A stretch of 64,000 bases of DNA from positions 195,579-259,578 of the forward strand of contig JBQTHB010000006.1 of assembly GCA_052390235.1 (NCBI GenBank), read 5' to 3'. Each line of letters begins with the position of its first letter. Within the stretch, counting starts at the first letter, position 1. Under the pieces are notes generated by a model that saw only the letters and a list, made by a program, of their open reading frames with translations, did no database searches and was not told the DNA's origin. This document shows, one piece after another, positions 408 to 64,000 of this stretch. The translations under genes and the position numbers were made by a program. The stretch is from Deltaproteobacteria bacterium (GTDB taxonomy: Bacteria > Desulfobacterota_D > UBA1144 > Nemesobacterales > CSP1-2).

Positions 408-2366
408 TTAATCCTCCGGCACGGCGATTTCATATACGACAAACCCCTGGCTAATCCCCTTTGCCGTGATACTGCCCGCGCACCTCGCAGATACGAAATC
501 CTTCACGCGCTCAAACACAGGCTCGCTTACTAAAATCCCCTCCACTGGGGCGACGCTCTCTAGCCTCTGAGCCAAATTCACATTCGCCCCAATGACCGTA
601 TAATCCATGCGCTTGAGCGACCCCATGTTGCCCACAACGACGTCGCCCGTATTAATTCCGACGCGGATTTTTATCGCAAGCCTCCCCTCGGCTTCCCACC
701 TGCGCCTAAGCCGGCGCGTTTTTTGCTGCATTTCAATGGCGGCTCTGACGGCGCGAAGGGCGTGGTCTGGCTGATGAACCGGATCTCCGAAGAATACCAT
801 CAGTCCGTCGCCGATGAATTTGTCTATCGTCCCCTCGTGTTTGAATACGATTTTTGCCATCTCGTCGAAATATTCGTTTAGCGTAAGCCGTATCTGCTCC
901 GGCTCTTGAGTGGTTGACCACGATGTGAAGCCCGATATGTCGCTGAATAGGACGGTGAGGGATTTTCTCTCGCTCGCCATGAGTTTTTCCGGGGATTTTA
1001 AAATTTTATTCAGCACCCCAGGGGCAAAATAATTCTCGAACATACGCCTCAGATACGCCTTTTCCCGTTCCTCGGCGAGATAGCGGTAGGCGTTCACGGA
1101 AACGAGGGCGAATATAAATCCGAGCGACGGGCGGACGGCGTTTGTGAGGGTGTTCTGATGGAGAAAGAGCCAAACGACCGAGGCGGCAAAGACGACGAAG
1201 AGGAGCAGAGCGCATATTGAAAATCGCGCCGCCCGAAACCTGAGCGCGAATAACACGAGAAACACTATTAAGCCCACATCGGCAAGCGCGCTCCAAGCGG
1301 GTGAAAGCTCGCTTAGGAAATTCTCCGTCAGCACCGTGTTGGCAATATTCGCATGGACGCCGCTCAGGGGATAGGCGTTCTCAAGGGGGATGGGCCCTAT
1401 GTCCCCGGCTCCGGTGGAAACATCTGCAACAATTGCCAAATCCCCCTGCATGACCTCCCGCAGTTCGTCGAGAGCGGCGGCATCTCCCTCGGCCCCCAGG
1501 AGAGCCGAGAAGGAGTAGTGCTTGAAAGAATCGTTCCATGTACCTGCGAAGTTCAGAATCATACGCCCCCTGCCGTCAACGGGAATGGCAACATCCCTCA
1601 CCCCGCCGTCTGGGAATTTCGCTCCCCGAAGGGTAATCCTCCCGCGAGATAGCTCGATACGCTCCGGGGGAACGCCGAGATAATCGCATACCATGCGAAA
1701 TGTCAAGCTCGGCGCGTAGCCGTCTCCATATCGGATGAGAAGGGCAAACCGCCTATAGACTCCGTCTGCGTCGGGATATGCCGTGATGTGTCCGACTCCC
1801 TTGGCAAATTTCGCCAAATCTGGAAAAGTCGGATACGCCCCCTTTGCCGCCAGCATGGATTCGCCGCCGCCAAAATCGCGGGGACGCCAGAGGGTCTCGT
1901 CCATCAGCGCCTGCTCTTGAGGGGATAGCGCAGGGGGAGCAGATACGCCACCATATTCCTCAAGGGCAAGCACAACGGGGAAATAGACCGTCTTGGCGCG
2001 CTCTGTCGCCTCGATAAAATAGGAGTCGCTCTCTTGGGCAGACGGGCGCTGGAACAAAATGTCGTAGGTTATGGTTTCCGCTCCGCCCTTGGAGAGGATG
2101 TCCGTAATACGCCCGTAGAGGGTTCTATCCCAGGGGAATCCCCTGAGTTCCTGAAGGCTTGAGTCGTTGAGGTCAACGTGGGCTATGTGGGGGTAAATCT
2201 CCTGCCTGCCGAATAATTTATAGCGGAGTTGAAAGAGCTGGTCGTTAGTCTGAAGATTCCACACGCTAAAAACGCTTGGCAGAAGGAGAAATAGGAGCGA
2301 CGCAATGAGAAAAGAGCCGGCGACAAGAGCGGCGATGCGGATTTTATAAGCCCTATTTGTGTTCAA
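408..2366 (-). CDS. Membrane-bound class III adenylate/guanylate cyclase with periplasmic CHASE2 sensor domain
   Basis: 652 aa. The layout is N-terminal TM, a ~300 aa extracytoplasmic region, a cluster of TM helices (LIVFLVLFALRF...LLLFVVFAASVVWLFL), then a C-terminal cyclase catalytic domain with the FSDISGFTSWS...FIGDGLMVFFG signature. Its start overlaps the upstream gene by 14 nt. Confidence 0.85.
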   Translation of the reverse strand: MNTNRAYKIRIAALVAGSFLIASLLFLLLPSVFSVWNLQTNDQLFQLRYKLFGRQEIYPHIAHVDLNDSSLQELRGFPWDRTLYGRITDILSKGGAETITYDILFQRPSAQESDSYFIEATERAKTVYFPVVLALEEYGGVSAPPALSPQEQALMDETLWRPRDFGGGESMLAAKGAYPTFPDLAKFAKGVGHITAYPDADGVYRRFALLIRYGDGYAPSLTFRMVCDYLGVPPERIELSRGRITLRGAKFPDGGVRDVAIPVDGRGRMILNFAGTWNDSFKHYSFSALLGAEGDAAALDELREVMQGDLAIVADVSTGAGDIGPIPLENAYPLSGVHANIANTVLTENFLSELSPAWSALADVGLIVFLVLFALRFRAARFSICALLLFVVFAASVVWLFLHQNTLTNAVRPSLGFIFALVSVNAYRYLAEEREKAYLRRMFENYFAPGVLNKILKSPEKLMASERKSLTVLFSDISGFTSWSTTQEPEQIRLTLNEYFDEMAKIVFKHEGTIDKFIGDGLMVFFGDPVHQPDHALRAVRAAIEMQQKTRRLRRRWEAEGRLAIKIRVGINTGDVVVGNMGSLKRMDYTVIGANVNLAQRLESVAPVEGILVSEPVFERVKDFVSARCAGSITAKGISQGFVVYEIAVPED

Positions 2367-3069
2367 TCCTGATAGTCTTACTGAAGAAATTCACTGCCTC
2401 AACCACTGTCGCAAGCGTTTCAATATCGGTCTCGCGAGGGTATGTCGGAATATAGACGTAGCCGTATGAGCCGGCGACCTCTATCGGTTTTTCAGGCTCG
2501 GCGGCAAATTTGCTATTGCGCCGCTTGAGGTCTCTAATCTCGGCAATCAAATCCGCCGAGGCGCGCTCTTTGGCCGATTTAGCGGCGGCGAGGTATTTCT
2601 CGGTCAGCGTCTCAAGACGGCGGAGTCTCTGGGCGGAGGCGAGGAGATAAATTACGGATTTCCCCCCCTTTTGTTGCTTTGGCAATAACCAATCTCCGCC
2701 AGCGGGGATGTAGTATTTCCCTCCGCCGTTGGCGCGGCTTTGATTGAAATCCTCAATTGAAGCGGGAAAAAGTAGCCTCACGTCGTTTTCAGGCTCAGCG
2801 AGATAGGCATAGACGTAGGCGTTTTTAACCGGGCTGATATAGATTTTCAGCACATCGCCCGGATAGAGCGAGTAGTCTTCGGTTATTTGAATTATTTCAC
2901 TGCCGCCCAGAGAGTCCAAACACGCCGCAACAGTCCACCTGAAGCTGAGAGTTGATTCATCATCTGCGGCGGATTGAGAGTCCTCGGCGCGCCCCCCCAC
3001 TCCTAAGGAAACCACCGCAGTCAGCAATAACGCAAGCGGCAATCTCAATTTAGCCCATAGGTTCTGCAT
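2353..3069 (-). CDS. Secreted hypothetical protein, paralog 1 of a tandem pair (possibly DUF4384-like); translationally coupled to the CHASE2 cyclase
   Basis: 238 aa with a signal peptide (LALLLTAVVSLGVGG). It has a beta-rich N-domain carrying a YVYAYL motif. The C-terminal helical tail (RLRRLETLTEKYLAA...ADLIAEIRDLKRRNSKFAAEP...KTIRIEHK) is nearly identical to that of the upstream paralog. Confidence 0.6.
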   Translation of the reverse strand: MQNLWAKLRLPLALLLTAVVSLGVGGRAEDSQSAADDESTLSFRWTVAACLDSLGGSEIIQITEDYSLYPGDVLKIYISPVKNAYVYAYLAEPENDVRLLFPASIEDFNQSRANGGGKYYIPAGGDWLLPKQQKGGKSVIYLLASAQRLRRLETLTEKYLAAAKSAKERASADLIAEIRDLKRRNSKFAAEPEKPIEVAGSYGYVYIPTYPRETDIETLATVVEAVNFFSKTIRIEHK

Positions 3070-3096
3070 CTAGCCAGCCCCCTTTTTTTCAGGCAC

Positions 3097-3765
3097 TTAT
3101 TTGTGTTCTATTCTGATGGTTTTAGAGTAGAAACCCTTAGCGCTCGTCCGAGTGGCGAGTTTCTCAATATCCGCATCCCCGCGGAAACTCCCCGCAATTT
3201 GAACGGGCTTCTGAGGTTCAGCGGCAAATTTACTGTTCCGGCGCTTGAGGTCTCTAATCTCGGCAATCAAATCCGCCGCGGCGCTCTCTTTGGCTGTTTT
3301 AGTTGCGGCGAGGTATTTCTCGGTCAGCGTCTCAAGACGGCGGAGTCTCAGGGCGGAGGCGAGAATATGGAAAGTCTCTTCGCCTGTATTTTGGTCTAAG
3401 GCGAGCCACTCCCCCCCGCTGGGGACGTAGTATTTCTCCCCAAAGGCGTAGCGCTTATCAAAATCACTGAGGGAGCGGGGGAAAAGGAGATGCACGTGCC
3501 GCAGTGAGTCAATCAGATAGATATAGACATAAGAGTTGTCAATGGGATTAACAAAAATTTTGAATAAGTCGCCGGATTTAAGAGACGTATCCCCCACGAT
3601 GGGCAATATCTCATCGCCTTTGGACTCGATTCGCGCCGCTATCGCCCACCGGAAGCTGAGTTCCAAATCCTCAGCCGAAGCTCCCCGCATATCGGTCAGA
3701 GCAAACAGAGAGCCGATAAAGAGGGATGAGCTAAGTAGAAAAATATAGAGTCGCGCTCTCATCAT
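3097..3765 (-). CDS. Secreted hypothetical protein, paralog 2 of the tandem pair
   Basis: The maximal ORF is 3097..3813. The probable start is the MMRAR methionine at 3765, which is preceded by AGGGA and followed by a signal peptide (LYIFLLSSSLFIGSLFA). The C-terminal ~70 aa match paralog 1, with ~92% nt identity between 3217-3363 and 2497-2643. Confidence 0.6.
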   Translation of the reverse strand: MMRARLYIFLLSSSLFIGSLFALTDMRGASAEDLELSFRWAIAARIESKGDEILPIVGDTSLKSGDLFKIFVNPIDNSYVYIYLIDSLRHVHLLFPRSLSDFDKRYAFGEKYYVPSGGEWLALDQNTGEETFHILASALRLRRLETLTEKYLAATKTAKESAAADLIAEIRDLKRRNSKFAAEPQKPVQIAGSFRGDADIEKLATRTSAKGFYSKTIRIEHK

Positions 3766-3896
3766 GGGGCTTGTCCCTATTTTTAAACCGCCGCGCAGGC
3801 AATGAGGTTTCATTTCTCGCCCCCCTATCCCCCGCTAAACGCAAAAAAACCGCGCAGAGGGCATAAGCCGCCCCGCCCTAGATTATTTTCGGGAAC

Positions 3897-4103
3897 TTAA
3901 GATGCGGTTTTGTATTTTCTATTAAACCTCTCCACCCTGCCCCTAGCTTCAGCCGACCTCTCTCTGCCGGTATAGAAGGGGTGGCAATTCGAGCAAATTT
4001 CCACGGAGAAATTCGACGCACGGCTTGACCTCGTCTTGTATGACGCTCCGCAGGCGCAGGATATTACGATGTCATTATACTTAGGATGAATATTGGCTTT
4101 CAT
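3897..4103 (-). CDS. rpmE: 50S ribosomal protein L31
   Basis: 68 aa starting MKANIHPKY, with the C-x-C ... CSNCHPFYTG zinc-ribbon pattern typical of L31. Confidence 0.9.
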   Translation of the reverse strand: MKANIHPKYNDIVISCACGASYKTRSSRASNFSVEICSNCHPFYTGRERSAEARGRVERFNRKYKTAS

Positions 4104-4179
4104 GTTCTGTAAAACCTCCTTAAACAGAGGGGAATTCTACATTGAAAAGTGGATTTGGCAATGCGGGCATCAATTCAAT

Positions 4180-4211
4180 ATAAAAAAGAGAGCGGCAAGC
4201 CCGCCGCCCTC
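4180..4211 (-). terminator. Rho-independent terminator downstream of dnaK
   Basis: Read on the minus strand the sequence is GAGGGCGGC-gggctt-GCCGCTCTC followed by TTTTTTATA. It lies 18 nt after the dnaK stop. Confidence 0.5.
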
Positions 4212-4228
4212 CCGTTCGCATAGCCAAT

Positions 4229-6139
4229 TTATTTCTCTGTAAATTCGGCGTCTATCACGTCGTCGCCGTCCTTGCCGGGTCTCTGCCCCGCGCTGCCGCC
4301 AGAAGCCGGATTCGAGGCATCTTCGCCTGAGCCAGATGTCTGCTTGTACATCATCTCGGCGATTTTGTGCGAGGCTCTGGTAATGCGCTCCATTGCCGCC
4401 TGCACCTCGCCCGCGTCTTCGCCCTTAAGGGCTTTGCGCCCGGATTCAAGCGCGTCTTCGAGTTCCTTTTTATCCTCTTCGGTGAGTCTCTCCTCGAATT
4501 CCTTGAAACTCTTGGAGGTCCTATAAATCAGGTCGTCGAGCTTATTTCTGCTCTCGACAAATTCCCGCCGTTTCTTATCGTCTTCAGCCTGCTCTTCGGC
4601 GTCTGTAACCATTTTATCAATCTGGTCCTTAGAAAGCCCGCTCGAAGCCTCGACCCTGACCTTCTGCTGTTTCTGAGACGCCATATCCTTCGCCCCTACA
4701 TGGAGAATCCCGTCGGCGTCAATATCGAACGACACCTCAACCTGCGGAATCCCTCTCGGCGCGGGCGGCATCCCATCCAATATAAACCTCGCCAGTGTCC
4801 TATTATCGCGCGCCATCTGACGCTCCCCCTGAAGCACGTGAATCTCGACCGAGGTCTGACTGTCTTCGGCTGTGGTAAACACCTGGCTCTTTTTTGTAGG
4901 GATAGTGGTGTTTCTCGTAATGATGGACGTCATAACGCCGCCCAGAGTCTCGATACCGAGCGACAGGGGCGTGACGTCGAGCAGAAGCACGTCTCTGACC
5001 TCGCCCCCCAGCACCGCGCCTTGAATCGCCGCCCCTACGGCTACGACCTCGTCCGGGTTGATGCCCTTTTGCGGCTCTTTCCCGAAGAAATCGGTTACGA
5101 CCTTCTGCACGAGGGGAATTCTCGTAGAGCCGCCGACAAGGACGACCTCGGTAATGCCGCTTGCCTTAAGCGCCGCGTCTTTGAGGGCTTGGCGGCACGG
5201 CTCAAGCGTTCCCATGACTAAATCCTCGACGAGTTGCTCGAATTTCGAGCGCGTGAGTTTCATAATAAGATGCCTCGGCCCAGCGGCGTCAGCCGTGATG
5301 AAGGGCAGGTTTATCTCGGTCTCAAGCGTGGTCGAAAGCTCGCACTTCGCCTTTTCCGACGCCTCGCGCAGACGCTGAAGCGCCATTTTATCCCTCCCAA
5401 GGTCAATTCCCGACTCCTTCTTAAACTCGGCAATTAGGTAGTCCATTATGCGGGCGTCAAAATCGTCTCCGCCCAAGTGCGTGTTTCCGTTCGTGGACTT
5501 CACCTCAATGACGTTGTCGCCAATTTCGAGTACGGAAATGTCGAAAGTCCCTCCGCCAAGGTCATAAACGGCTATCATGCCCTCTTTTTTCTTATCGAAT
5601 CCATAAGCGAGAGCGGCGGCTGTGGGCTCGTTTATGATGCGTTTTACGTTTAGACCCGCAATCTTGCCCGCGTCTTTGGTTGCCTGACGCTGGCTATCGT
5701 TAAAATAGGCAGGAACAGTGATTACGGCTTCTTCAACCTCGCTTCCGAGATAGGTCTCAGCCGCTTTTTTGAGCTTCATTAGAACGTGAGAGGATATTTG
5801 GGGCGGGGAGTACTGCCTGCCAGAGGCTTCGACCCAAGCGTCCCCGTTTGGAGATTTGGCAATTTTATAGGGGAGGCGTTTTGCCTCGTTCTGGACTTCG
5901 TCGCTACGGCGTCCCATGAGCCTCTTTACGGAGAAAATGGTGTTTTCGGGATTCACGACTGACTGCCTCTTAGCGGGGCCCCCGACCAAAATCTCTCCGT
6001 CCTTTGCAAAGGCAACGATGGACGGGGTAATTCTCGAGCCTTCTTCGTTTATCAGCACTTTTGGCTCGCCTCCCTCGACTATGGCTACGACGGAGTTCGT
6101 AGTGCCGAGGTCAATTCCTATTATCTTCTTCGTGGACAT
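4229..6139 (-). CDS. dnaK: Molecular chaperone DnaK (Hsp70)
   Basis: 636 aa. It carries [23 protein letters not shown] and [10 protein letters not shown] motifs and an acidic EEVD-less bacterial C-terminus. Confidence 0.97.
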
Positions 6140-57027: not shown

Positions 57028-58035
57028 ATGAAAACCTCGGATTTCGACTACCCGCTTCCCGAAAATCTCATCGCCTCATACCCGCTTCCAGGCAGAGACG
57101 CATCTAGGCTGCTGCGCTTGGACAGGTACAGCGGCAACATCGCCCATCTCGGATTCCGAGACCTTCCCGCGCTTCTCGTCGAAGGCGACCTCCTCGTGCT
57201 GAATGATACGAAAGTGATACCGGCGAGGCTCATGGGCAAATCCAGAGGATACGGCAGATTCGAGGTTTTACTACTAGAGAAGCTCTCGCCGACGCTCTGG
57301 AAGAGCATGATGCGAAACCCTAAGCACGGGGCGGCGGTGGAATTTCAATCTGGAATGAGGGGGAGAATTATCAAAAACGGGAGAGAGGGCTGGCTCTTTG
57401 AATTCGAGCGCGCGGCTGAGGAATACATCGAGCAGTTCGGGAGTATGCCTCTTCCGCCCTACATCAGGCGGGACGCTGAGGAGGCTGATAGGCAGAATTA
57501 TCAGACCGTTTATGCGAGGCAGGACGGCTCAGCCGCCGCGCCGACAGCGGGGCTGCATTTTACCGAAAACCTGCTTGGGCGGATTAGACAAAAGGGCGTG
57601 GATTTGTGCTTCGTTACGCTCCACGTCGGGGCGGGAACTTTTCAGCCCGTAAAAAGCGAAGAGATAGAGAAACATAAAATGCACTCGGAGTGGAGAGAAA
57701 TCGGCGCTGACGCGGCGGCGGCGATAAACAGCGCGAAACGCGATGGAAGAAGGGTCATAGCCGTAGGCACGACAGCCGTGAGAACTATTGAGTCGGCGGC
57801 GGCGGGCGAGGGGGAGATTCAGCCTGCTTTGGGCTATACGGATATTTTTATCACTCCCGGATTTAATTTCCGCATCGTGGACGGGATGATAACGAATTTT
57901 CACACTCCGCGTTCGACGCTTCTGATGCTGGTTTCGGCTTTTGCAGGTCGCGAGAGGATACTGCGCGCCTACGATGCCGCAGTCGGAGAGGGATACAGAT
58001 TCCTAAGCTACGGCGACGCCATGATAATCCTCTAA
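57028..58035 (+). CDS. queA: S-adenosylmethionine:tRNA ribosyltransferase-isomerase
   Basis: 335 aa starting MKTSDFDYPLPENLIA, with an AGLHFT motif and a GTTAVR motif. Confidence 0.92.
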   Translation: MKTSDFDYPLPENLIASYPLPGRDASRLLRLDRYSGNIAHLGFRDLPALLVEGDLLVLNDTKVIPARLMGKSRGYGRFEVLLLEKLSPTLWKSMMRNPKHGAAVEFQSGMRGRIIKNGREGWLFEFERAAEEYIEQFGSMPLPPYIRRDAEEADRQNYQTVYARQDGSAAAPTAGLHFTENLLGRIRQKGVDLCFVTLHVGAGTFQPVKSEEIEKHKMHSEWREIGADAAAAINSAKRDGRRVIAVGTTAVRTIESAAAGEGEIQPALGYTDIFITPGFNFRIVDGMITNFHTPRSTLLMLVSAFAGRERILRAYDAAVGEGYRFLSYGDAMIIL

Positions 58036-58040
58036 AGGGT

Positions 58041-58271
58041 TTACTTCGAGAATAAGAGCTGTTTTATCCCCTTGAATAGGGAAAATGATTCGTTATGACG
58101 GCTTGCAGAGTCCGACTCTTGAACCCTAATTGACGATAAATAAAGCCCCATCTGCTGAATTTTCCTCTTGGCATCAACCTCGGTCCACGCCTTAACAGTG
58201 GCGTTTTTTTTTCTTCCCGATGCGTTCAGGGCCTCAAATTCATAGGTTTTCATTATCTCTCGCGCCTCCAA
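58041..58271 (-). CDS. Small hypothetical protein (possible terminal gene of the lipoprotein cluster, or spurious)
   Basis: 76 aa ORF with weak support. It lies downstream of a candidate terminator hairpin at 58494-58519. Confidence 0.2.
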   Translation of the reverse strand: MEAREIMKTYEFEALNASGRKKNATVKAWTEVDAKRKIQQMGLYLSSIRVQESDSASRHNESFSLFKGIKQLLFSK

Positions 58272-58559
58272 AATAACCGGTTGATTGATGATTCAGTTAT
58301 TGAATCGCAAGATGTGTGCCACGAGGCGAGATTTTATATTTCAGCTATAACTCATCTAAACCACTACAGAAATTGGCAAAGCAGAGTAAAGGTGAATTAT
58401 CTGGGCAGACGGTTTAGCGCAAGATTGCCATAGAAAATTGCCAAATTTTGGGATAACTTGAAATTTATCGCCGAGATGAATTCAAAACCACAAGGCGGCT
58501 TTTCAGCAATCGCGCCGCCGAAGAAGATGCCAACCCAAATAAATCACAGACGGCGTAAA

Positions 58560-60074
58560 TTACCGACTACACTCAAACGCCTCAAAACAGTCCGGGTCGT
58601 TGCAATCTATAAGTCCGTCGCCGTCGTTATCGAAATTGTCGGAGCAGGTTGACTCCGTGGGTTCGCATCCCGTGGAAAGGGCGCAGTCCGGGTCGGCGCA
58701 GTCGAGAAAACCGTCGCCGTCGTTATCAATGCCGTCAGCGCAGCCGGGTATTTCCACCGCGGGCGTCGGCGTAGGTGTTGGAGTAGGAGTAGGCGTAGGT
58801 GTTGGAGTAGGCGTTGGTGTGGGCGTTGGTGTCGGAGTTAGACAAATCCCGCCGGTGCATATCCCCGCTATTCCATGAAGTACACACATCTGTCCATCAC
58901 AGTCGGAATCAGCGCAGTCGGTAAATTCATCCGAGTCGTTATCAGCCGAATCACTACACTCCAGCCCCGTCTCAGTGCAAGCGGAAGAGCCAGCGCAATC
59001 GGAATCCGCGCAGTCGAGAAGCCCATCGCCGTCGTTATCAGCGCCGTCGCTGCAGGTTGCCTCTGGAATCTCGCAGACAGCGCCGCAGGGCCCCGTTTGC
59101 CCCTCGCAATCCGAATCCGCGCAGTCTATGAAATTATCGCCGTCGTTATCGGCGCCGTCGTTGCACGTTGCCTCTGGAATCTCGCACACCTGCCCGGCGT
59201 CTCCCATTTGCCCCTCGCAGCTAGAATCGGCGCAGTCCGCGAGATTATCGCCGTCATTGTCCATAGAATCGCTACAATCCGAGCCAGACTCGACGCAGGC
59301 GGGGGAGTTATTGCAGTCCGCATCCTCGCAGTCAGCCGCGCCGTCGCCGTCGTCGTCAACTACATTTGAGCAGTTCTCGCCGGGAATCGGAGTAGGCGCA
59401 GGGGTAGGAGTAGCAGGTACGGGACTAGGGGTAGGCGTGGGAGTTACGACCGGAGGTTCTACTTCACACATCCCGTTTATGCAAATCCCAGAGTCGCCGC
59501 CGAGAACGCAAGCCATGCCATCGCAGTCTGCATCTTGGCAATCAACGGATTCGTCCGAGTCGTTGTCAATCCCGTCCACGCAGACCTGCTCGACCTCACT
59601 TGGCGGTTCAACCAGAACGCATTGAATCGCTATGCTATTGCTAGCTCCGGGACTGACATTTACGTTAGCTCCCCCTCTGCAGACAATATCTCCGTTGGCA
59701 TCAAAGGCTATAACGGTAATAAACGACTGACCCTGCGGGACAAATATTCTACTGCTAATCGGAAAGTCAGAAACTTCTATGATTTCTTCGACCGTTTCCG
59801 AGCCAGATTGGCCTGAGATGAGAATAGACACTATGGAATCAAAATCCTGCCTGGATACGGCATCCTGAGGCGATTCCGAGGCTACGAGAGAGCATGAATT
59901 TCTATTGACCACGCTCAGAGAGACTCTTAAAGAGCCGTCGTCGAATTCCTCATCCCCCGGCGACCCGCCGCATGAAAGGAAAAGAAAAATAGAAGCAACC
60001 AACAACATAGCCCTAGCCGCAAATTTTCGTGTGTAGAACACAGAACCCCTGTAATTGTTTCTATATTGCGCCAA
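58560..60074 (-). CDS. Lipoprotein with 8 tandem Cys-framed EF-hand/Excalibur-like (DNDGDG) calcium-binding modules and Pro/Thr-rich stalks; paralog A
   Basis: 504 aa with a signal peptide and lipobox (FLSCGG), then a conserved ~120-aa N-domain. Eight modules of the form C-x-D-G-x-D-N-D-G-D-x-L-x-D-C-x-D-x-D-C follow. A (TP)13 linker separates modules 6 and 7. Confidence 0.7.
   Translation of the reverse strand: MAQYRNNYRGSVFYTRKFAARAMLLVASIFLFLSCGGSPGDEEFDDGSLRVSLSVVNRNSCSLVASESPQDAVSRQDFDSIVSILISGQSGSETVEEIIEVSDFPISSRIFVPQGQSFITVIAFDANGDIVCRGGANVNVSPGASNSIAIQCVLVEPPSEVEQVCVDGIDNDSDESVDCQDADCDGMACVLGGDSGICINGMCEVEPPVVTPTPTPSPVPATPTPAPTPIPGENCSNVVDDDGDGAADCEDADCNNSPACVESGSDCSDSMDNDGDNLADCADSSCEGQMGDAGQVCEIPEATCNDGADNDGDNFIDCADSDCEGQTGPCGAVCEIPEATCSDGADNDGDGLLDCADSDCAGSSACTETGLECSDSADNDSDEFTDCADSDCDGQMCVLHGIAGICTGGICLTPTPTPTPTPTPTPTPTPTPTPTPTPAVEIPGCADGIDNDGDGFLDCADPDCALSTGCEPTESTCSDNFDNDGDGLIDCNDPDCFEAFECSR
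58761..58838 (-). repeat. Hexanucleotide tandem repeat (13 x NGG-NGT on the plus strand) encoding (Thr-Pro)13
   Basis: The repeat is an in-frame microsatellite inside paralog A. Wobble positions vary between units. Confidence 0.8.
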
Positions 60075-60123
60075 TATAAAGCCCCCTAACTAACAAGCCC
60101 TCAGCCGATATTGCAGGTCAGCA

Positions 60124-61338
60124 TCATGGAAGAAGACACACACCCTCGCTACATATTCCAGCCTGATCGTGAATCAAACACACTTCGCCATCGCAGTCAA
60201 AATCTTGGCAGTCGCTATTTCCATCTCCGTCGTTATCGAAATTGTCATTGCAGGTTGACTCTGGGAATTCACAATTTGAGAATAACCCTCTGCAGTCCGG
60301 GTCGGCGCAGTCGTGTAATTGGTCTCCGTCATTATCCTGTCCGTCCAGACACTCGTCTCCGGTCTCGGTGCATCTGGGGTCGGAGGCGCAGTCGGAATCC
60401 TGACAGTCGAATTGGAAATCCCCGTCGTTGTCGGCAAAATCATCGCAGGTTAGCTCTCTAGAGAATTCGCATTGGAAGGGCTGACCTTCTTGCAAGGGGG
60501 AGGATCCTACAGTAACTCCGTCGCAATTCGAGTCGGCGCAGTCAATAAGCCCGTCGCCGTCGTTATCGGCGAAATCATCGCAGGTTGACTCGGAAAATTC
60601 GCAAATAGCCTGACATGGGCCCACCTGTCCGACGCAGTCGAAATCGGCGCAGTCTATAAGCCTGTCCCCGTCGTCGTCCATCCCGTTTGCGCAATTTTCA
60701 TTCATGCCGGGCGTAGGGGAAGGCTCGGGGGTTATTATTGGGGATGTCGTGGGCGTGGGTTGAACGCTCGGCGTTGGCGCTGGGGAGGTCTGAATTACGC
60801 ACAAGCCAAGCGAGCAGACCCCGCTAATGCCGTCTATGGAGCAGACATCGCCGCTGCAATCTGGGTCGGCGCAATCAGTTAAATCGTCTCCGTCGTTATC
60901 CTGTCCATCGCCGCAGACCAGTTCTATGCCCTCGCCGGGTACAAGCGCGCAGGGGATTACCACTGCGTTCTCTCCGGGGAGAATTTCGGTGTTAATACCC
61001 CCCATGCAGATGACCGTCTGATTTGCGTCCGTCCCTACGACGGTAATGGCGAGGGGCCCAAGCGGGAAAAAGATTTGAACCTGAGCGGTTAGCCCGCCGA
61101 CAGCAAAGGATTCTTCAATTGTTTCAGAGCCGGACAGCCCCGAAATTGTTACAGAAGTAATGTCCTGAAACTGTCTCGGAGAAGAACCAAAACCGCCAGG
61201 GCAAAAGCCCTCGTCAAATCTCAACGAGACCCTCAGCGAAGAGCCGCCAGAAATTTCGCCGCCACCACCAGCTCCTCCGCAGGATATGTAAATCATCAGC
61301 GTCAGCATTAACGGAGCAAGGAGGAGTCTCTTATTCAA
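60124..61338 (-). CDS. Lipoprotein with 6 tandem Cys-framed DNDGDG calcium-binding modules; paralog B
   Basis: 404 aa with a signal peptide and lipobox (YISCGG). The N-domain is homologous to paralog A (LRVSL...SGxSGSET...). The P/T/S-rich linker is IQTSPAPTPSVQPTPTTSPIITPEPSPTP. Confidence 0.7.
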   Translation of the reverse strand: MNKRLLLAPLMLTLMIYISCGGAGGGGEISGGSSLRVSLRFDEGFCPGGFGSSPRQFQDITSVTISGLSGSETIEESFAVGGLTAQVQIFFPLGPLAITVVGTDANQTVICMGGINTEILPGENAVVIPCALVPGEGIELVCGDGQDNDGDDLTDCADPDCSGDVCSIDGISGVCSLGLCVIQTSPAPTPSVQPTPTTSPIITPEPSPTPGMNENCANGMDDDGDRLIDCADFDCVGQVGPCQAICEFSESTCDDFADNDGDGLIDCADSNCDGVTVGSSPLQEGQPFQCEFSRELTCDDFADNDGDFQFDCQDSDCASDPRCTETGDECLDGQDNDGDQLHDCADPDCRGLFSNCEFPESTCNDNFDNDGDGNSDCQDFDCDGEVCLIHDQAGICSEGVCLLP

Positions 61339-61396
61339 TTTATCACCTCAAAGTTAAATTTACTCGGATGAACCTAACCACTAGCGATTGTGCAGA

Positions 61397-62194
61397 TTAC
61401 TGTCCCCCGGGAGATGGCGGAATCACTATATCCACTGGCGCTCTGCCTTCGGAATCAACCCCCGGAAGCTGGTCTGCGGGCTGTTCCAGCGGGAGCTCCG
61501 GCAGAGAGCGCAGTACAGGAGAATCGTCTGAAGCCGGAGTGTTAGGGTCTTTGCCCGGATAATCTTCATACAATGAGTCCCTGAGCGGAACGCCCTCTTG
61601 GAAGTCTGTATCGCTGAACTCTTCTTTTAATTTACTGCTGAGTGCCTCTGGGTCGGAAGGGTCGCCATCTATGATTCTCGTACACTCGCCAGAGTTAAGC
61701 AAAACCTCTCTGGTTTTCCCCTTCACCGACACTGCCCCCTCGACGACGCAGAATATCCCCTTGGCGTTAACGAGCAGAGTCGTTCCCTTCACGCCGGCGA
61801 CGGCGTTGGGGGTGGCGTACTCAACGGTTGACTCGCCTTCAATTCTCTGCACGATGGATTTGAGCTTTCCCTTCGTGAGGGTGGATAAGGACTTTCTTTT
61901 TCCCGGATTATAGGCAAATTCGGTGATTTCAAACTCGGCGTTTGCTCCGAGAGAAATTAAAGTATCGTCCTCAAATAGTATCTTAGCCCCGGAATCGTCT
62001 CCAGTTTCGATTAAATCCCCAAGATAGGCTCTCGCGCCTTGCTTGACCTGCTCTAGGGTCTCTACGCCCGTGATTTTAACCTGCCCATTGGCGGCTGTAA
62101 TCACCCCTACGGGCTGAGGGGACTGGGCATTGGCGACTGAAAGCCATAAAACCGAGAGCATTATATATGATAAAACAACAGAGCTAATTTTCAT
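61397..62194 (-). CDS. Secreted FecR-domain protein
   Basis: 265 aa with a signal peptide and a FecR-like beta-sandwich region (ITAANGQVKITGV...GARAYLGDLIETGDDSGAKILFEDDTLISLGANAEFEI). The C-terminal tail is Pro/acidic-rich. Confidence 0.65.
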   Translation of the reverse strand: MKISSVVLSYIMLSVLWLSVANAQSPQPVGVITAANGQVKITGVETLEQVKQGARAYLGDLIETGDDSGAKILFEDDTLISLGANAEFEITEFAYNPGKRKSLSTLTKGKLKSIVQRIEGESTVEYATPNAVAGVKGTTLLVNAKGIFCVVEGAVSVKGKTREVLLNSGECTRIIDGDPSDPEALSSKLKEEFSDTDFQEGVPLRDSLYEDYPGKDPNTPASDDSPVLRSLPELPLEQPADQLPGVDSEGRAPVDIVIPPSPGGQ

Positions 62195-62223
62195 GTTTTC
62201 CCCGTACCTCGCGGATAAACTTT

Positions 62224-63732
62224 TTAGAACCTAACGCTCAGCGTGGCTGAAACCACGTTTCTCGAATAATCGAACGGCTCGCCTGCAGGAACGTCGCTGT
62301 CCGAGAGGTTTGAAATGTGCTGATAGCCAAAATCAACCGATAAATTCTTATAAACCTTCTTTGACACTACGACCCTGAAGCGAAGCTCATTATCAACCCT
62401 CTCGAAGGGGTCGTTGTGGTAATCCTCTCTGGAATAGCTCGCATCGGAGAAAACCACGAGGTCATAGGGAAGAAGCAAGAATCCCTCGACGAAAACCCCC
62501 GGCGCGTAGTAATCGAAATTGCGCCTGCCCGCTATGTCATCGGCGCTGTTGATTTCAAATTTAACCCCCGGCCTAATGAGCAACTTGCCATCCCGAAGGA
62601 GGAACGTCTGGGCTAGGACAACGGCATTATTTACGGCGTCTCTTTCGGGGAAATCCTCAAAATCGTCGAATCTCAACTGATAGGAGAGGTCAGTACTGGT
62701 GATATTGCTCCATTTAACTGTTATCTTGGGGCTGACCAGATGGTACTGAGAGAATAAATCACTCGCAGGAGAGCCGTCTATTAGCACAACGTCGTAGGCG
62801 TAATCGAGTCTGAAGGAGACGAGTTTCTCGGCTAAAGTAACCCTCTTTTCCCCATACACGCCGAAGCGGTGGTCTTGGATGTTGAACTCGTCCAGGTCGT
62901 TATGGAAAGAGAAATAGGTCTTATAATCTAAGCCTATTACGGCATCGGGTTTCAAATAGGGCTTAAAGCCGAGGTTAGCGATGAAAACCCCGCGCACGTC
63001 GCTTTGGTCTGTAATTTCAACGTCGTTAGGCTCAAGCGAGACGTTGTCGTCGAACTGGGCGCCCACGCTGACCAAGCCGTAGTATTTTTTGGTGAGCCTC
63101 TCAATGGCGGCGAGATAATCTATCGAGGCTTTGGCAAAGCTAGTTTCAGGCTGGAGCGTGCGGACAGTCTCGAAGTCAGTTTTTGCGGTTTGATATTCGG
63201 CAATCTGGTAGTGGCTCGCCCCCTTGTAAAACTTGGAAGGAAGCAATACCTCGGAGTCGAGTCCCGCCGCTTTATCTAGGGACGCGGCAGAGGCTTGATA
63301 TTTGCCGAGCTGATACTGCGTATAGCCTAGGTTATATTGGGCGAGGCCGCTTTTAGGGTTTCTAGTTACGGCTTCGGTAAATTCCGCCTCTGCCATGGCT
63401 AGGTCTCCGGTTTTAAGATAAACAGCGCCCAAGTCGAGATTTATATCCATGATATTCGGGTCTAGGGATTTTGCCCTCTCGAGATATTTTATTGACTCCA
63501 AGTCCCTTTCCATCTTATAGAGCGAGAGTCCAAGAGCGTGATGAGCCACGGCGCTCTGAGGATTTTCAGCAATAGCCCGCTCGAGGGAACTGACGGCTTC
63601 GGGATAATTCTTATCCAAATAACCGGCGATGCCTTTGTTTAGGTTCACTTCGAATTCCGCAAAAGAGGGATAAGACAGTGTTAATGTTAAAACGGTTAGG
63701 AGAAGACAGTTTCTTAGTTTCAATCCCGCCAC
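62224..63732 (-). CDS. Outer-membrane protein with N-terminal periplasmic TPR domain and C-terminal beta-barrel (Slam/DUF560-like or PgaA-like porin architecture)
   Basis: 502 aa with a signal peptide (LTLSYPSFA) and ~4 TPR repeats. The C-terminal ~290 aa has alternating-hydrophobic beta-strand patterning. The protein ends in an aromatic residue (LSVRF), typical of outer-membrane barrels. Confidence 0.6.
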   Translation of the reverse strand: MAGLKLRNCLLLTVLTLTLSYPSFAEFEVNLNKGIAGYLDKNYPEAVSSLERAIAENPQSAVAHHALGLSLYKMERDLESIKYLERAKSLDPNIMDINLDLGAVYLKTGDLAMAEAEFTEAVTRNPKSGLAQYNLGYTQYQLGKYQASAASLDKAAGLDSEVLLPSKFYKGASHYQIAEYQTAKTDFETVRTLQPETSFAKASIDYLAAIERLTKKYYGLVSVGAQFDDNVSLEPNDVEITDQSDVRGVFIANLGFKPYLKPDAVIGLDYKTYFSFHNDLDEFNIQDHRFGVYGEKRVTLAEKLVSFRLDYAYDVVLIDGSPASDLFSQYHLVSPKITVKWSNITSTDLSYQLRFDDFEDFPERDAVNNAVVLAQTFLLRDGKLLIRPGVKFEINSADDIAGRRNFDYYAPGVFVEGFLLLPYDLVVFSDASYSREDYHNDPFERVDNELRFRVVVSKKVYKNLSVDFGYQHISNLSDSDVPAGEPFDYSRNVVSATLSVRF

Positions 63733-63926
63733 CTTGTGTCCTTAAGGATTTAAATGAAGAAAAGCCGCGCGCCGTGATACACAACAGCCCAGCTTTCAGC
63801 TTACAACTATAACTTTTTATTGTCAATACTAAGCCGCAAATCTCGTAGCAATCGGCGCTCACCCGATAAATTAATCCCGCATACAAGTGTTGACAGCTAA
63901 AATCGAACCCTGTATTTTGTACTCGG

Positions 63927-64000
63927 TATGAGCGAATATAAAGCGTGGTTTCAGTGCATAGACGATGAATGCGGCGAGCGATACGCCCTTAACGAGATAG
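63927..64000 (+). CDS. Partial ORF (N-terminal 24 codons) with Zn-ribbon-like C-x-x-C start (MSEYKAWFQCIDDECGERYALNEI); possibly threonine synthase-like
   Basis: It is truncated by the window end. A TTGACA-17-TATTTT promoter-like element at 63889-63917 lies just upstream. Confidence 0.25.

Follow-up and report, generated by a model that had tools for sequence, protein, structure and literature searches.

The surface lipoprotein assembly modulators (Slam), which include Slam1 and Slam2 of Neisseria and NilB of Xenorhabdus, are defined by an architecture in which tetratricopeptide repeats (TPR) are joined to a 14-stranded outer-membrane barrel (PMC5449769). Their cargo lipoproteins carry a C-terminal eight-stranded, TbpB-like barrel, and a gene with a lipobox is adjacent in 52% of Slam loci (PMC5449769). 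A survey of type XI secretion systems (T11SS) mentions neither FecR proteins nor cyclases. CHASE2 is a common bacterial sensor domain whose recognised signals have been described as unknown (PMC5192318). The sole functional lead on its input is NsrA, an outer-membrane barrel of S. meliloti that is needed for the CHASE2 cyclases CyaK and CyaD1/D2 to perceive a protein signal (PMC7529298, PMC13001267); in the same organism a FecR-domain gene, smc02177, lies beside cyaD1 (PMC5498481). A cluster of CHASE2-cyclase, phosphodiesterase, FecR 'outer membrane' and TPR genes in Campylobacterota has been inferred to represent one pathway, with no mechanism given (PMC9239204), and in Burkholderia and P. 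aeruginosa a LysM-FecR protein is encoded with a CHASE2 histidine kinase (PMC5192318). The locus considered here lies in a 64,000-nucleotide stretch, termed the window, of contig JBQTHB010000006.1 from a Deltaproteobacteria bacterium (assembly GCA_052390235.1, positions 195,579 to 259,578), and comprises four genes that encode a TPR-barrel protein, a FecR-domain protein and two acidic-repeat lipoproteins.

The four open reading frames (ORFs) are co-directional on the minus strand, at 62224-63732 (gene 1), 61397-62194 (gene 2), 60124-61338 (gene 3, lipoprotein A) and 58560-60074 (gene 4, lipoprotein B). The gaps calculated from the ORF coordinates are 29, 58 and 49 nt, in agreement with the tightly spaced set described in an earlier note on this DNA, and the genes form one operon. 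Chance is far from sufficient to account for this arrangement, since strings of homologous genes are seen again in dozens of genomes from several phyla. We put at about even the prospect that this operon is the cell-envelope (outer-membrane sensing) arm of a widespread, uncharacterised CHASE2-linked signalling module, and infer that it may serve both surface export and signalling.

The TPR-barrel protein and its relation to Slam

Gene 1 encodes a 502-amino acid outer-membrane protein with a signal peptide (residues 1-25, MAGLKLRNCLLLTVLTLTLSYPSFA, followed by EFE), a periplasmic TPR domain (residues ~26-213; nt 63094-63657) and a 14-stranded β-barrel (residues 216-502; nt 62227-63087). Residues ~30-205 match Pfam TPR_2 (71.6 bits), TPR_1, TPR_16 and related families, and the C-terminal half ends in ...SATLSVRF, with a terminal Phe. 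An AlphaFold2 model built from a 27-sequence alignment (mean pLDDT 90.1) comprises 12 helices followed by 14 long strands, and its top structural matches for the barrel are CymA and OmpG, both 14-stranded. The N-terminal TPR and Phe-terminated barrel read from the sequence in the earlier note are thus borne out by Pfam, by the model and by the C-terminal residues, and the strand count, which that note had proposed as a discriminator, is that of Slam rather than the 16 of PgaA.

The relationship to Slam becomes apparent at the level of the family. When 1.84 billion representative proteins were searched with a profile restricted to the barrel of the window clade (A2), 1654 clusters were recovered at E <= 1e-3, of which 727 reach E <= 1e-10. 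Among the relatives matched by this profile, 37 of 70 match the Slam barrel family SlipAM (DUF560, PF04575) at E <= 0.1, the best at 2.1e-11, and 51 of 70 match TPR_Slam (PF24575), to which gene 1 itself has a weak match of 15 bits. When ten relatives were checked singly, two passed the 22-bit threshold of PF04575, P0163 (35.2 bits) and P0162 (28.3 bits), covering positions 44-288 and 56-284 respectively of the 288-position profile (~245 barrel residues), whilst P0214 fell just under it at 21.9 bits. Both P0163 and P0162 are matched by the window-clade profile at about 5e-32. From this transitive homology, taken together with the TPR and 14-strand architecture, the gene 1 barrel appears to belong, as a distant relative, to the superfamily of Slam/type XI secretion barrels (SlipAM, DUF560). 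Searches against the Protein Data Bank (PDB) sequences returned only TPR proteins for the full-length profile and nothing at E <= 10 for the barrel-only profile. Plasmids were also searched by tblastn with P0163 and the window barrel, for a Slam with annotation or an example in culture; this gave TPR matches alone and then no match.

In comparison with the Neisseria and Xenorhabdus proteins, the window barrel shares the TPR domain, the 14 strands and the adjacent lipobox genes. Some of its relatives score above the PF04575 threshold along almost all of the barrel, whereas the window protein lies below detection. The neighbour in the window family is FecR, and often a CHASE2 enzyme, rather than a TonB-dependent receptor, and the window, from a Thermodesulfobacteriota-type metagenome-assembled genome, represents a family centred on Nitrospirota, Desulfobacterota and Binatia rather than on classical Proteobacteria.

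A TPR domain followed by a barrel is also the architecture of PgaA and BcsC, and gene 1 could accordingly be an export porin like PgaA, BcsC or EpsL, of the polysaccharide or PEP-CTERM type, and its three neighbours unrelated passengers. Relatives of the barrel do give weak matches to NCBIfam TIGR03016, EpsL and PgaA and to Pfam BBP2_2, and a GT2-like gene stands beside the barrel in six Nitrospirota loci. However, the TIGR03016 and EpsL matches cover only the last 60-90 residues and score 20-37 bits against cutoffs of 91-275; those to BBP2_2 are likewise limited to the last 60-90 residues and below cutoff, and those to NCBIfam PgaA and BcsC are confined to the TPR region. In addition, 14 strands are modelled and not 16-18, neither the window locus nor the close clade carries a synthase or glycosyltransferase, and the barrel is held in tight synteny with FecR and lipoprotein genes. 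On the strength of the strand count, the partial matches, the missing synthase genes and the synteny, the porin reading is very improbable and effectively excluded, and the preference of the earlier note for a Slam-like over a polysaccharide-export barrel holds, as matches to the latter are partial and far below their thresholds.

The FecR-domain protein and the modular lipoproteins

Gene 2 encodes a 265-amino acid secreted protein with a FecR core (residues 60-155; nt 61730-62017) that scores 41.2 bits with Pfam PF04773 (cutoff 24). The domain is preceded by a type-I signal peptide (...LSVANA, followed by QSP), in line with the secretion proposed in the earlier note, and weak NCBIfam matches are made to the FecR-type Leptospira proteins Lsa33 and LipL45. 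No anti-sigma domain or transmembrane helix was found in gene 2, which contains only the FecR domain and the cleavable signal peptide, and it is thus a soluble periplasmic FecR-domain protein. It ends in a Pro-rich tail of ~60 residues (nt 61397-61575) that carries the clade motif ...LPGVDxxxxAPVDIVIP. This organisation is typical of the family, whose FecR proteins are nearly always 260-300 residues long and combine a type-I signal peptide, a ~200-residue FecR region and a Pro-rich tail of 50-100 residues. The tail motif reads ...LLPGV(D/N)xxxxAPVD(V/I)(I/V)(I/V)P in the window clade and ...PP(I/L)xQxP...(V/I)x(I/V)xF(P/Q) in more distant members, and a terminal [VIL]x[VILF]x[FY] is found in 17 of 55 FecR proteins vs 6 of 629 background ORFs. 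Strand-like tails, often Phe-terminated, are present in L005-L014, L025, L048, L057, L076, L079 and other loci.

Outer-membrane barrels pair strands through a C-terminal amphipathic strand with an aromatic end. The FecR tail resembles such a strand, and by analogy it may anchor FecR on the barrel or on the attached TPR domain. The tail motif also recalls an outer-membrane β-signal or a strand-augmentation peptide. Some loci encode giant FecR proteins (1529 residues in L083; 940-1400 residues in L065, L078, L028 and L036), which may be NsrA-like fusions.

In the FecA-FecR-FecI system a FecR-type periplasmic domain likewise couples a barrel in the outer membrane with an output located in the inner membrane or cytoplasm. 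Here, in contrast, FecR is soluble, and there is no anti-sigma domain, TonB-dependent transducer or conserved ECF sigma factor; neither a sigma factor nor a TonB-dependent receptor was found among the recurrent neighbours of the module. Anti-sigma signalling of the FecIRA type, which would require an anti-sigma domain, a sigma factor and a transducer, is therefore ruled out.

Genes 3 and 4 are collinear paralogs with 44% identity, each beginning with a lipobox (IYIS-CGG in gene 3, slightly non-canonical in its Tyr at position -3, and LFLS-CGG in gene 4). The lipobox Cys of gene 3 is residue 20 (nt 61279-61281) and that of gene 4 is residue 35 (nt 59970-59972). Beyond a Gly-rich linker, gene 3 contains an N-terminal β-sandwich, termed lipoN (residues 28-130; nt 60949-61257), a PT-rich linker and six acidic double-disulfide repeats (residues 142-382; nt 60193-60915), whilst gene 4 contains lipoN (residues 45-152; nt 59619-59942; lipoN HMM E 8e-22) and then eight such repeats with a (PT)n linker (residues 165-496; nt 58587-59582). 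The unit C-x-D-G-x-D-N-D-G-D-x-x-x-D-C-x-D-x-D-C occurs in six copies in gene 3 and eight in gene 4. Both proteins far exceed the 41-bit cutoff of NCBIfam NF033662, the 'acidic double-disulfide repeat', which describes a ~32-residue unit with four Cys and an acidic DNDGD core: gene 3 scores 138 bits over six stretches and gene 4 222.6 bits over eight. The mature proteins contain 33 Cys with a net charge of -69 (gene 3) and 41 Cys with a net charge of -93 (gene 4). Two paralogous SCGG lipoproteins built of Cys-framed acidic modules, as the earlier note had proposed, are therefore indicated by the lipoboxes, the NF033662 scores and the shared identity. Within gene 4, a tandem DNA repeat at 58762-58838 has a 12/24-nt unit that encodes the (PT)n linker, and a second at 58994-59255 (111-nt unit, 2.4 copies, 80% matches) shows recent duplication of the 37-residue acidic units.

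lipoN is a domain of ~105 residues that always lies directly after the lipobox Cys and a short Gly-rich linker. In the predicted structure of lipoprotein A, an N-terminal sandwich of seven strands gives way to small disulfide repeats, and a C-terminal barrel is absent. In contrast to Slam cargo, the conserved part of these lipoproteins is the N-terminal β-sandwich, and the C-terminus is variable. Behind lipoN are found acidic repeats in the window clade and, in other members, fibronectin type III (fn3) arrays with DUF1565/NosD β-helices, GH43-like modules, propellers of the lactonase, Vgb-lyase and YncE types, FG-GAP repeats and DUF3108-like modules, in lipoproteins of up to ~1500 residues. 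Genes 3 and 4 are thus outer-membrane lipoproteins of a family defined by lipoN, with an exchangeable C-terminal module. The Cys-framed DNDGDG repeat itself is shared with the NF033662 and MopE-related PF11617 proteins, of which there are hundreds in Myxococcota and other groups. These are unlinked to barrel or FecR genes, and a search with the full-length lipoprotein retrieved mostly repeat-only proteins, lipoN being present in three of the 120 matches listed. Loops of the DxDxDG type are a familiar means of binding Ca2+ and other cations, and on account of these loops and of the kinship to PF11617/MopE-related proteins the acidic array is expected to bind Ca2+, other cations, or surfaces that are cationic or mineral.

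Recurrence of the module, its CHASE2 context and its flanks

Synteny was scanned in one genome per GTDB species, yielding 80 loci with 85 barrel genes from Nitrospirota, Desulfobacterota, Binatia, Myxococcota, Dadabacteria, Methylomirabilia and other groups, in which ORFs were called and searched with iterated HMMs built from the window proteins. A FecR gene lies immediately downstream on the same strand in 56 of the 76 barrel genes with downstream room. This count omits two barrel genes of L047 that also have a same-strand FecR gene downstream: in one case the distance, 352 nt, slightly exceeds the limit set for adjacency, and in the other FecR forms part of a long ORF overlapping with the barrel gene. 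Among the remaining barrel genes, 11, all of the Nitrospirota type, have a lipoN lipoprotein directly upstream instead. lipoN lipoproteins are present in 25 of 43 well-flanked loci, and under a strict lipobox regular expression a lipoprotein neighbour accompanies 25 of 68 modules vs 21 of 639 background ORFs, a rate comparable to that of Slam loci. The barrel/FecR/lipoprotein arrangement is therefore conserved across phyla, and the argument from cargo adjacency made in the earlier note is sustained, both by the two lipobox genes of the operon and by their enrichment beside the barrel elsewhere.

A variant without FecR or CHASE2 is found in L019-L026, L031, L033, L039, L044 and L046 (Nitrospirota, Manganitrophaceae, Troglogloeales). 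Here the genes directly upstream of the barrel encode one or two lipoN lipoproteins of great size (up to 1520 residues) with fn3 arrays and DUF1565 β-helices; CsgG/LpoB-like TPR lipoproteins are encoded further upstream and, in six loci, the GT2-like gene lies convergently downstream. The system splits into two separable sub-modules, barrel plus lipoN in Nitrospirota and FecR plus CHASE2, without the barrel, in Burkholderia, and these are joined by the barrel-FecR adjacency.

The relatives with the highest identity to the window (L002-L014, all >=44%) without exception carry a gene for a CHASE2 domain and a class III cyclase directly upstream of the barrel gene. These cyclases are mutually orthologous (49-83% identity), and most of the loci also carry a class-II cyclic nucleotide monophosphate (cNMP) phosphodiesterase and/or a small cNMP-binding protein, and two a GAF-HD protein. 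Across loci with >=6 kb on each side, CHASE2 is present within 8 kb in 18 of 32 FecR-positive loci vs 1 of 11 FecR-negative loci. In L083 (7032-16125) the gene preceding the barrel encodes CHASE2 fused to SpoIIE, a PP2C phosphatase, and the link is therefore to the CHASE2 domain and not to the cyclase. Given this CHASE2/cNMP context, the likely role shifts from plain display to envelope signalling.

The window is the only locus of the close clade without the upstream cyclase. In its closest GTDB relative (L006, 60% identity) the cyclase gene at 2198-4301 has a 48-residue deletion in the CHASE2 domain, with a frameshift at the junction, which could reflect a decaying pseudogene or an assembly error; together with its absence from the window, this hints at loss of the cyclase in a sub-lineage.

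Both the barrel and its contexts bear on a reading in which the operon serves purely for Slam-like surface-lipoprotein export and display, with the acidic lipoproteins binding Ca2+ or metals or acting as adhesins or a protective layer, FecR acting as a periplasmic chaperone, adaptor or second cargo, and the cyclases of relatives merely regulating the system or being co-regulated with it. The TPR and 14-strand architecture with its SlipAM overlap, lipoprotein adjacency near that of Slam by either measure, the barrel-lipoN pairs that lack FecR and CHASE2 in 10-11 Nitrospirota loci, the resemblance of the variable C-terminal modules to surface or adhesin domains, and the persistence of an intact module where the cyclase is lost (window) or apparently decaying (L006) would all fit such a role. 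It would nevertheless leave unexplained why FecR is the most conserved neighbour, why it tracks CHASE2, and why cyclase, phosphodiesterase and cNMP-binding genes are so tightly packed across the close clade; the cargo, moreover, is without the C-terminal barrel that defines that of Slam. We regard pure display as unlikely. The Slam-like export proposed in the earlier note thus stands as regards architecture, remote homology and synteny, whilst its cargo rule differs and its role is altered by the CHASE2/cNMP context.

The described CHASE2 systems each share part of this organisation. The NsrA-CyaK/CyaD1/CyaD2 system, likened here by description only, follows the same logic of an outer-membrane barrel acting on an inner-membrane CHASE2 cyclase; NsrA is, however, a single polypeptide of ~1200 residues (barrel at residues 600-1200) with no lipoprotein partner described, and the window locus is without the cyclase. 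The Campylobacterota cluster, again compared by description only, contains the same four gene types as L002, L004, L008-L011 and other loci, but the resemblance of its TPR protein to a Slam barrel was not pointed out, nor was any lipoprotein partner reported. The Burkholderia 'BiofilmReg' operon, which includes a DUF4136 lipoprotein, shares a periplasmic FecR protein, a small lipoprotein and a CHASE2 sensor, but has no barrel, a histidine-kinase output and a LysM domain on its FecR protein. The components are thus known separately, and no source was found in the literature that joins a Slam-type barrel, an N-terminally tagged modular lipoprotein, FecR and CHASE2. The earlier suggestion of an undescribed combination survives in part only, a CHASE2-cyclase/phosphodiesterase/FecR/TPR cluster having already been noted (PMC9239204).

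The NsrA precedent (PMC7529298) raises a further scenario, a receptor complex without translocation, in which an NsrA/FecA-like barrel is accompanied by lipoproteins that remain in the periplasmic leaflet as co-receptors or pilotin-like factors, and FecR acts on CHASE2. The CHASE2 association is in keeping with this, as is the contact that the FecR domain makes with outer-membrane transducers, exemplified by E. coli FecR and FecA (PMC5498481). Large variable passengers (β-helices, fn3 arrays and propellers, up to 1500 residues) are, however, typical of surface proteins, and the best full-length family match of the barrel family is a lipoprotein translocon; a complex of this kind is decidedly improbable.

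The limits of the operon can be placed with reference to its flanks. The 195-nt intergenic region at 63733-63927, presumed to be the operon promoter region, is bounded by gene 1 on one side and a divergent gene on the other, and this opposite orientation places the start of the operon at 63732. This interval occupies the place that the CHASE2 cyclase gene holds in all close relatives. The divergent gene, on the plus strand at 63928-64000 (continuing as L001 3-224), begins MSEYKAWFQCIDDECGERYALNEIVYRCKRCANLLEV..., sits at the cyclase gene position and has no homolog in related loci; it contains two Cys pairs, suggesting a zinc ribbon, and is represented in L001 by a 74-residue fragment. An NCBI record (P0001) contains a protein identical to gene 1 that, at 474 residues, is 28 shorter than the ORF. 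A protein begun there would lack the signal peptide, and the GTG at 63732, with a preceding AAGGA, is the more plausible start. Gene 3 is 404 residues long from its TTG, and the gene caller's version of 394 residues starts at 61308. Gene 4 in all probability starts at the ATG at 60008, as in the 493-residue version of the gene caller, and the last gap would then widen to ~115 nt.

The span of 58041-63732 assigned to the system in the earlier note holds for the four genes, but 58041-58559 is made up of a separate 76-residue ORF (58041-58271, minus strand) and a 288-nt spacer. In the source collection this ORF is annotated as T2SSF_N (PF28597), a free-standing GspF/PilC N-terminal domain, and a Pfam search of it gave no match. 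In L006, L008 and L009 the lipoprotein gene is separated from a downstream homolog of this ORF by 1.3-2.1 kb, a distance which indicates that the ORF tracks the synteny on the queA side and not the module, and it was rejected as a fifth operon member. Rfam, promoter and terminator scans of 57900-64000 revealed nothing meaningful. At the far end of the window, a cyclase gene (408-2366) is preceded by genes for two secreted DUF4384 paralogs (2353-3069 and 3097-3813) in an apparent minus-strand operon (408-3813); with the two DUF4384 proteins, the genome encodes another type of accessory set for a CHASE2 sensor.

A proposed trans-envelope sensor

In the signalling reading proposed at the outset, the barrel would receive the lipoprotein through the conserved lipoN and either hold it at the outer membrane or translocate it, with the variable module facing outward as the sensor of an external cue. 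In the window the ligands of this module would be divalent cations, whether Ca2+ or other metals, or else mineral or cationic surfaces. FecR would dock on the barrel by means of its tail and the TPR domain, and would report the state of barrel and lipoprotein across the periplasm to an enzyme of the inner membrane whose CHASE2 domain projects into that space; in all close relatives this enzyme would be the upstream adenylate/guanylate cyclase encoded beside the cNMP phosphodiesterase and/or cNMP-binding protein. With the cis-encoded cyclase lost here, the window module would either signal to a distal CHASE2 protein or serve for lipoprotein display only. The fuller proposal, that of a phylum-spanning trans-envelope sensor in which a Slam/T11SS barrel shows a modular lipoprotein 'antenna' on the cell surface and a strand-tethered FecR relays the ligand state of the antenna to CHASE2 cyclases or phosphatases of the inner membrane, is tentative, and we consider it possible though doubtful.

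Several observations weigh against this account. The window has no CHASE2 gene next to the barrel and no cyclase remnant upstream, and the only CHASE2 cyclase in the 64 kb, that at 408-2366, is a paralog of 30% identity accompanied by DUF4384 partners of its own. No CHASE2 gene lies within 8 kb in 14 of the 32 FecR-positive loci, and the association of FecR with CHASE2 (Fisher p = 0.012) is uncorrected for phylogeny. As to the barrel, the comparison with DUF560, PgaA and BcsC models suggested in the earlier note shows that the family overlaps SlipAM, but gene 1 itself has no direct match to PF04575 at E <= 1, so that its homology to SlipAM is, at the sequence level, only transitive; PF04575, furthermore, also picks up some 16-stranded PgaA proteins (PMC8406197). 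The window lipoproteins, finally, are without the eight-stranded C-terminal barrel of Slam cargo.

Together, this locus and the related loci delimit a small set of partners that recurs with CHASE2 enzymes, namely a barrel of the Slam-like type, FecR as adaptor and a modular lipoprotein, and this set makes the question of CHASE2 input approachable by protein-protein and ligand-binding experiments. If the trans-envelope sensor reading is true, it would supply the long-missing input mechanism of CHASE2, and the Slam family would gain a second function, signalling, beside nutrient capture. The Slam/type XI superfamily is extended beyond host-associated Proteobacteria, with a cargo recognition that would be based on the N-terminal domain. 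With at least 1654 clusters at 50% identity, the barrel relatives constitute a large unannotated envelope family in the environmentally important Nitrospirota, Desulfobacterota and Binatia.

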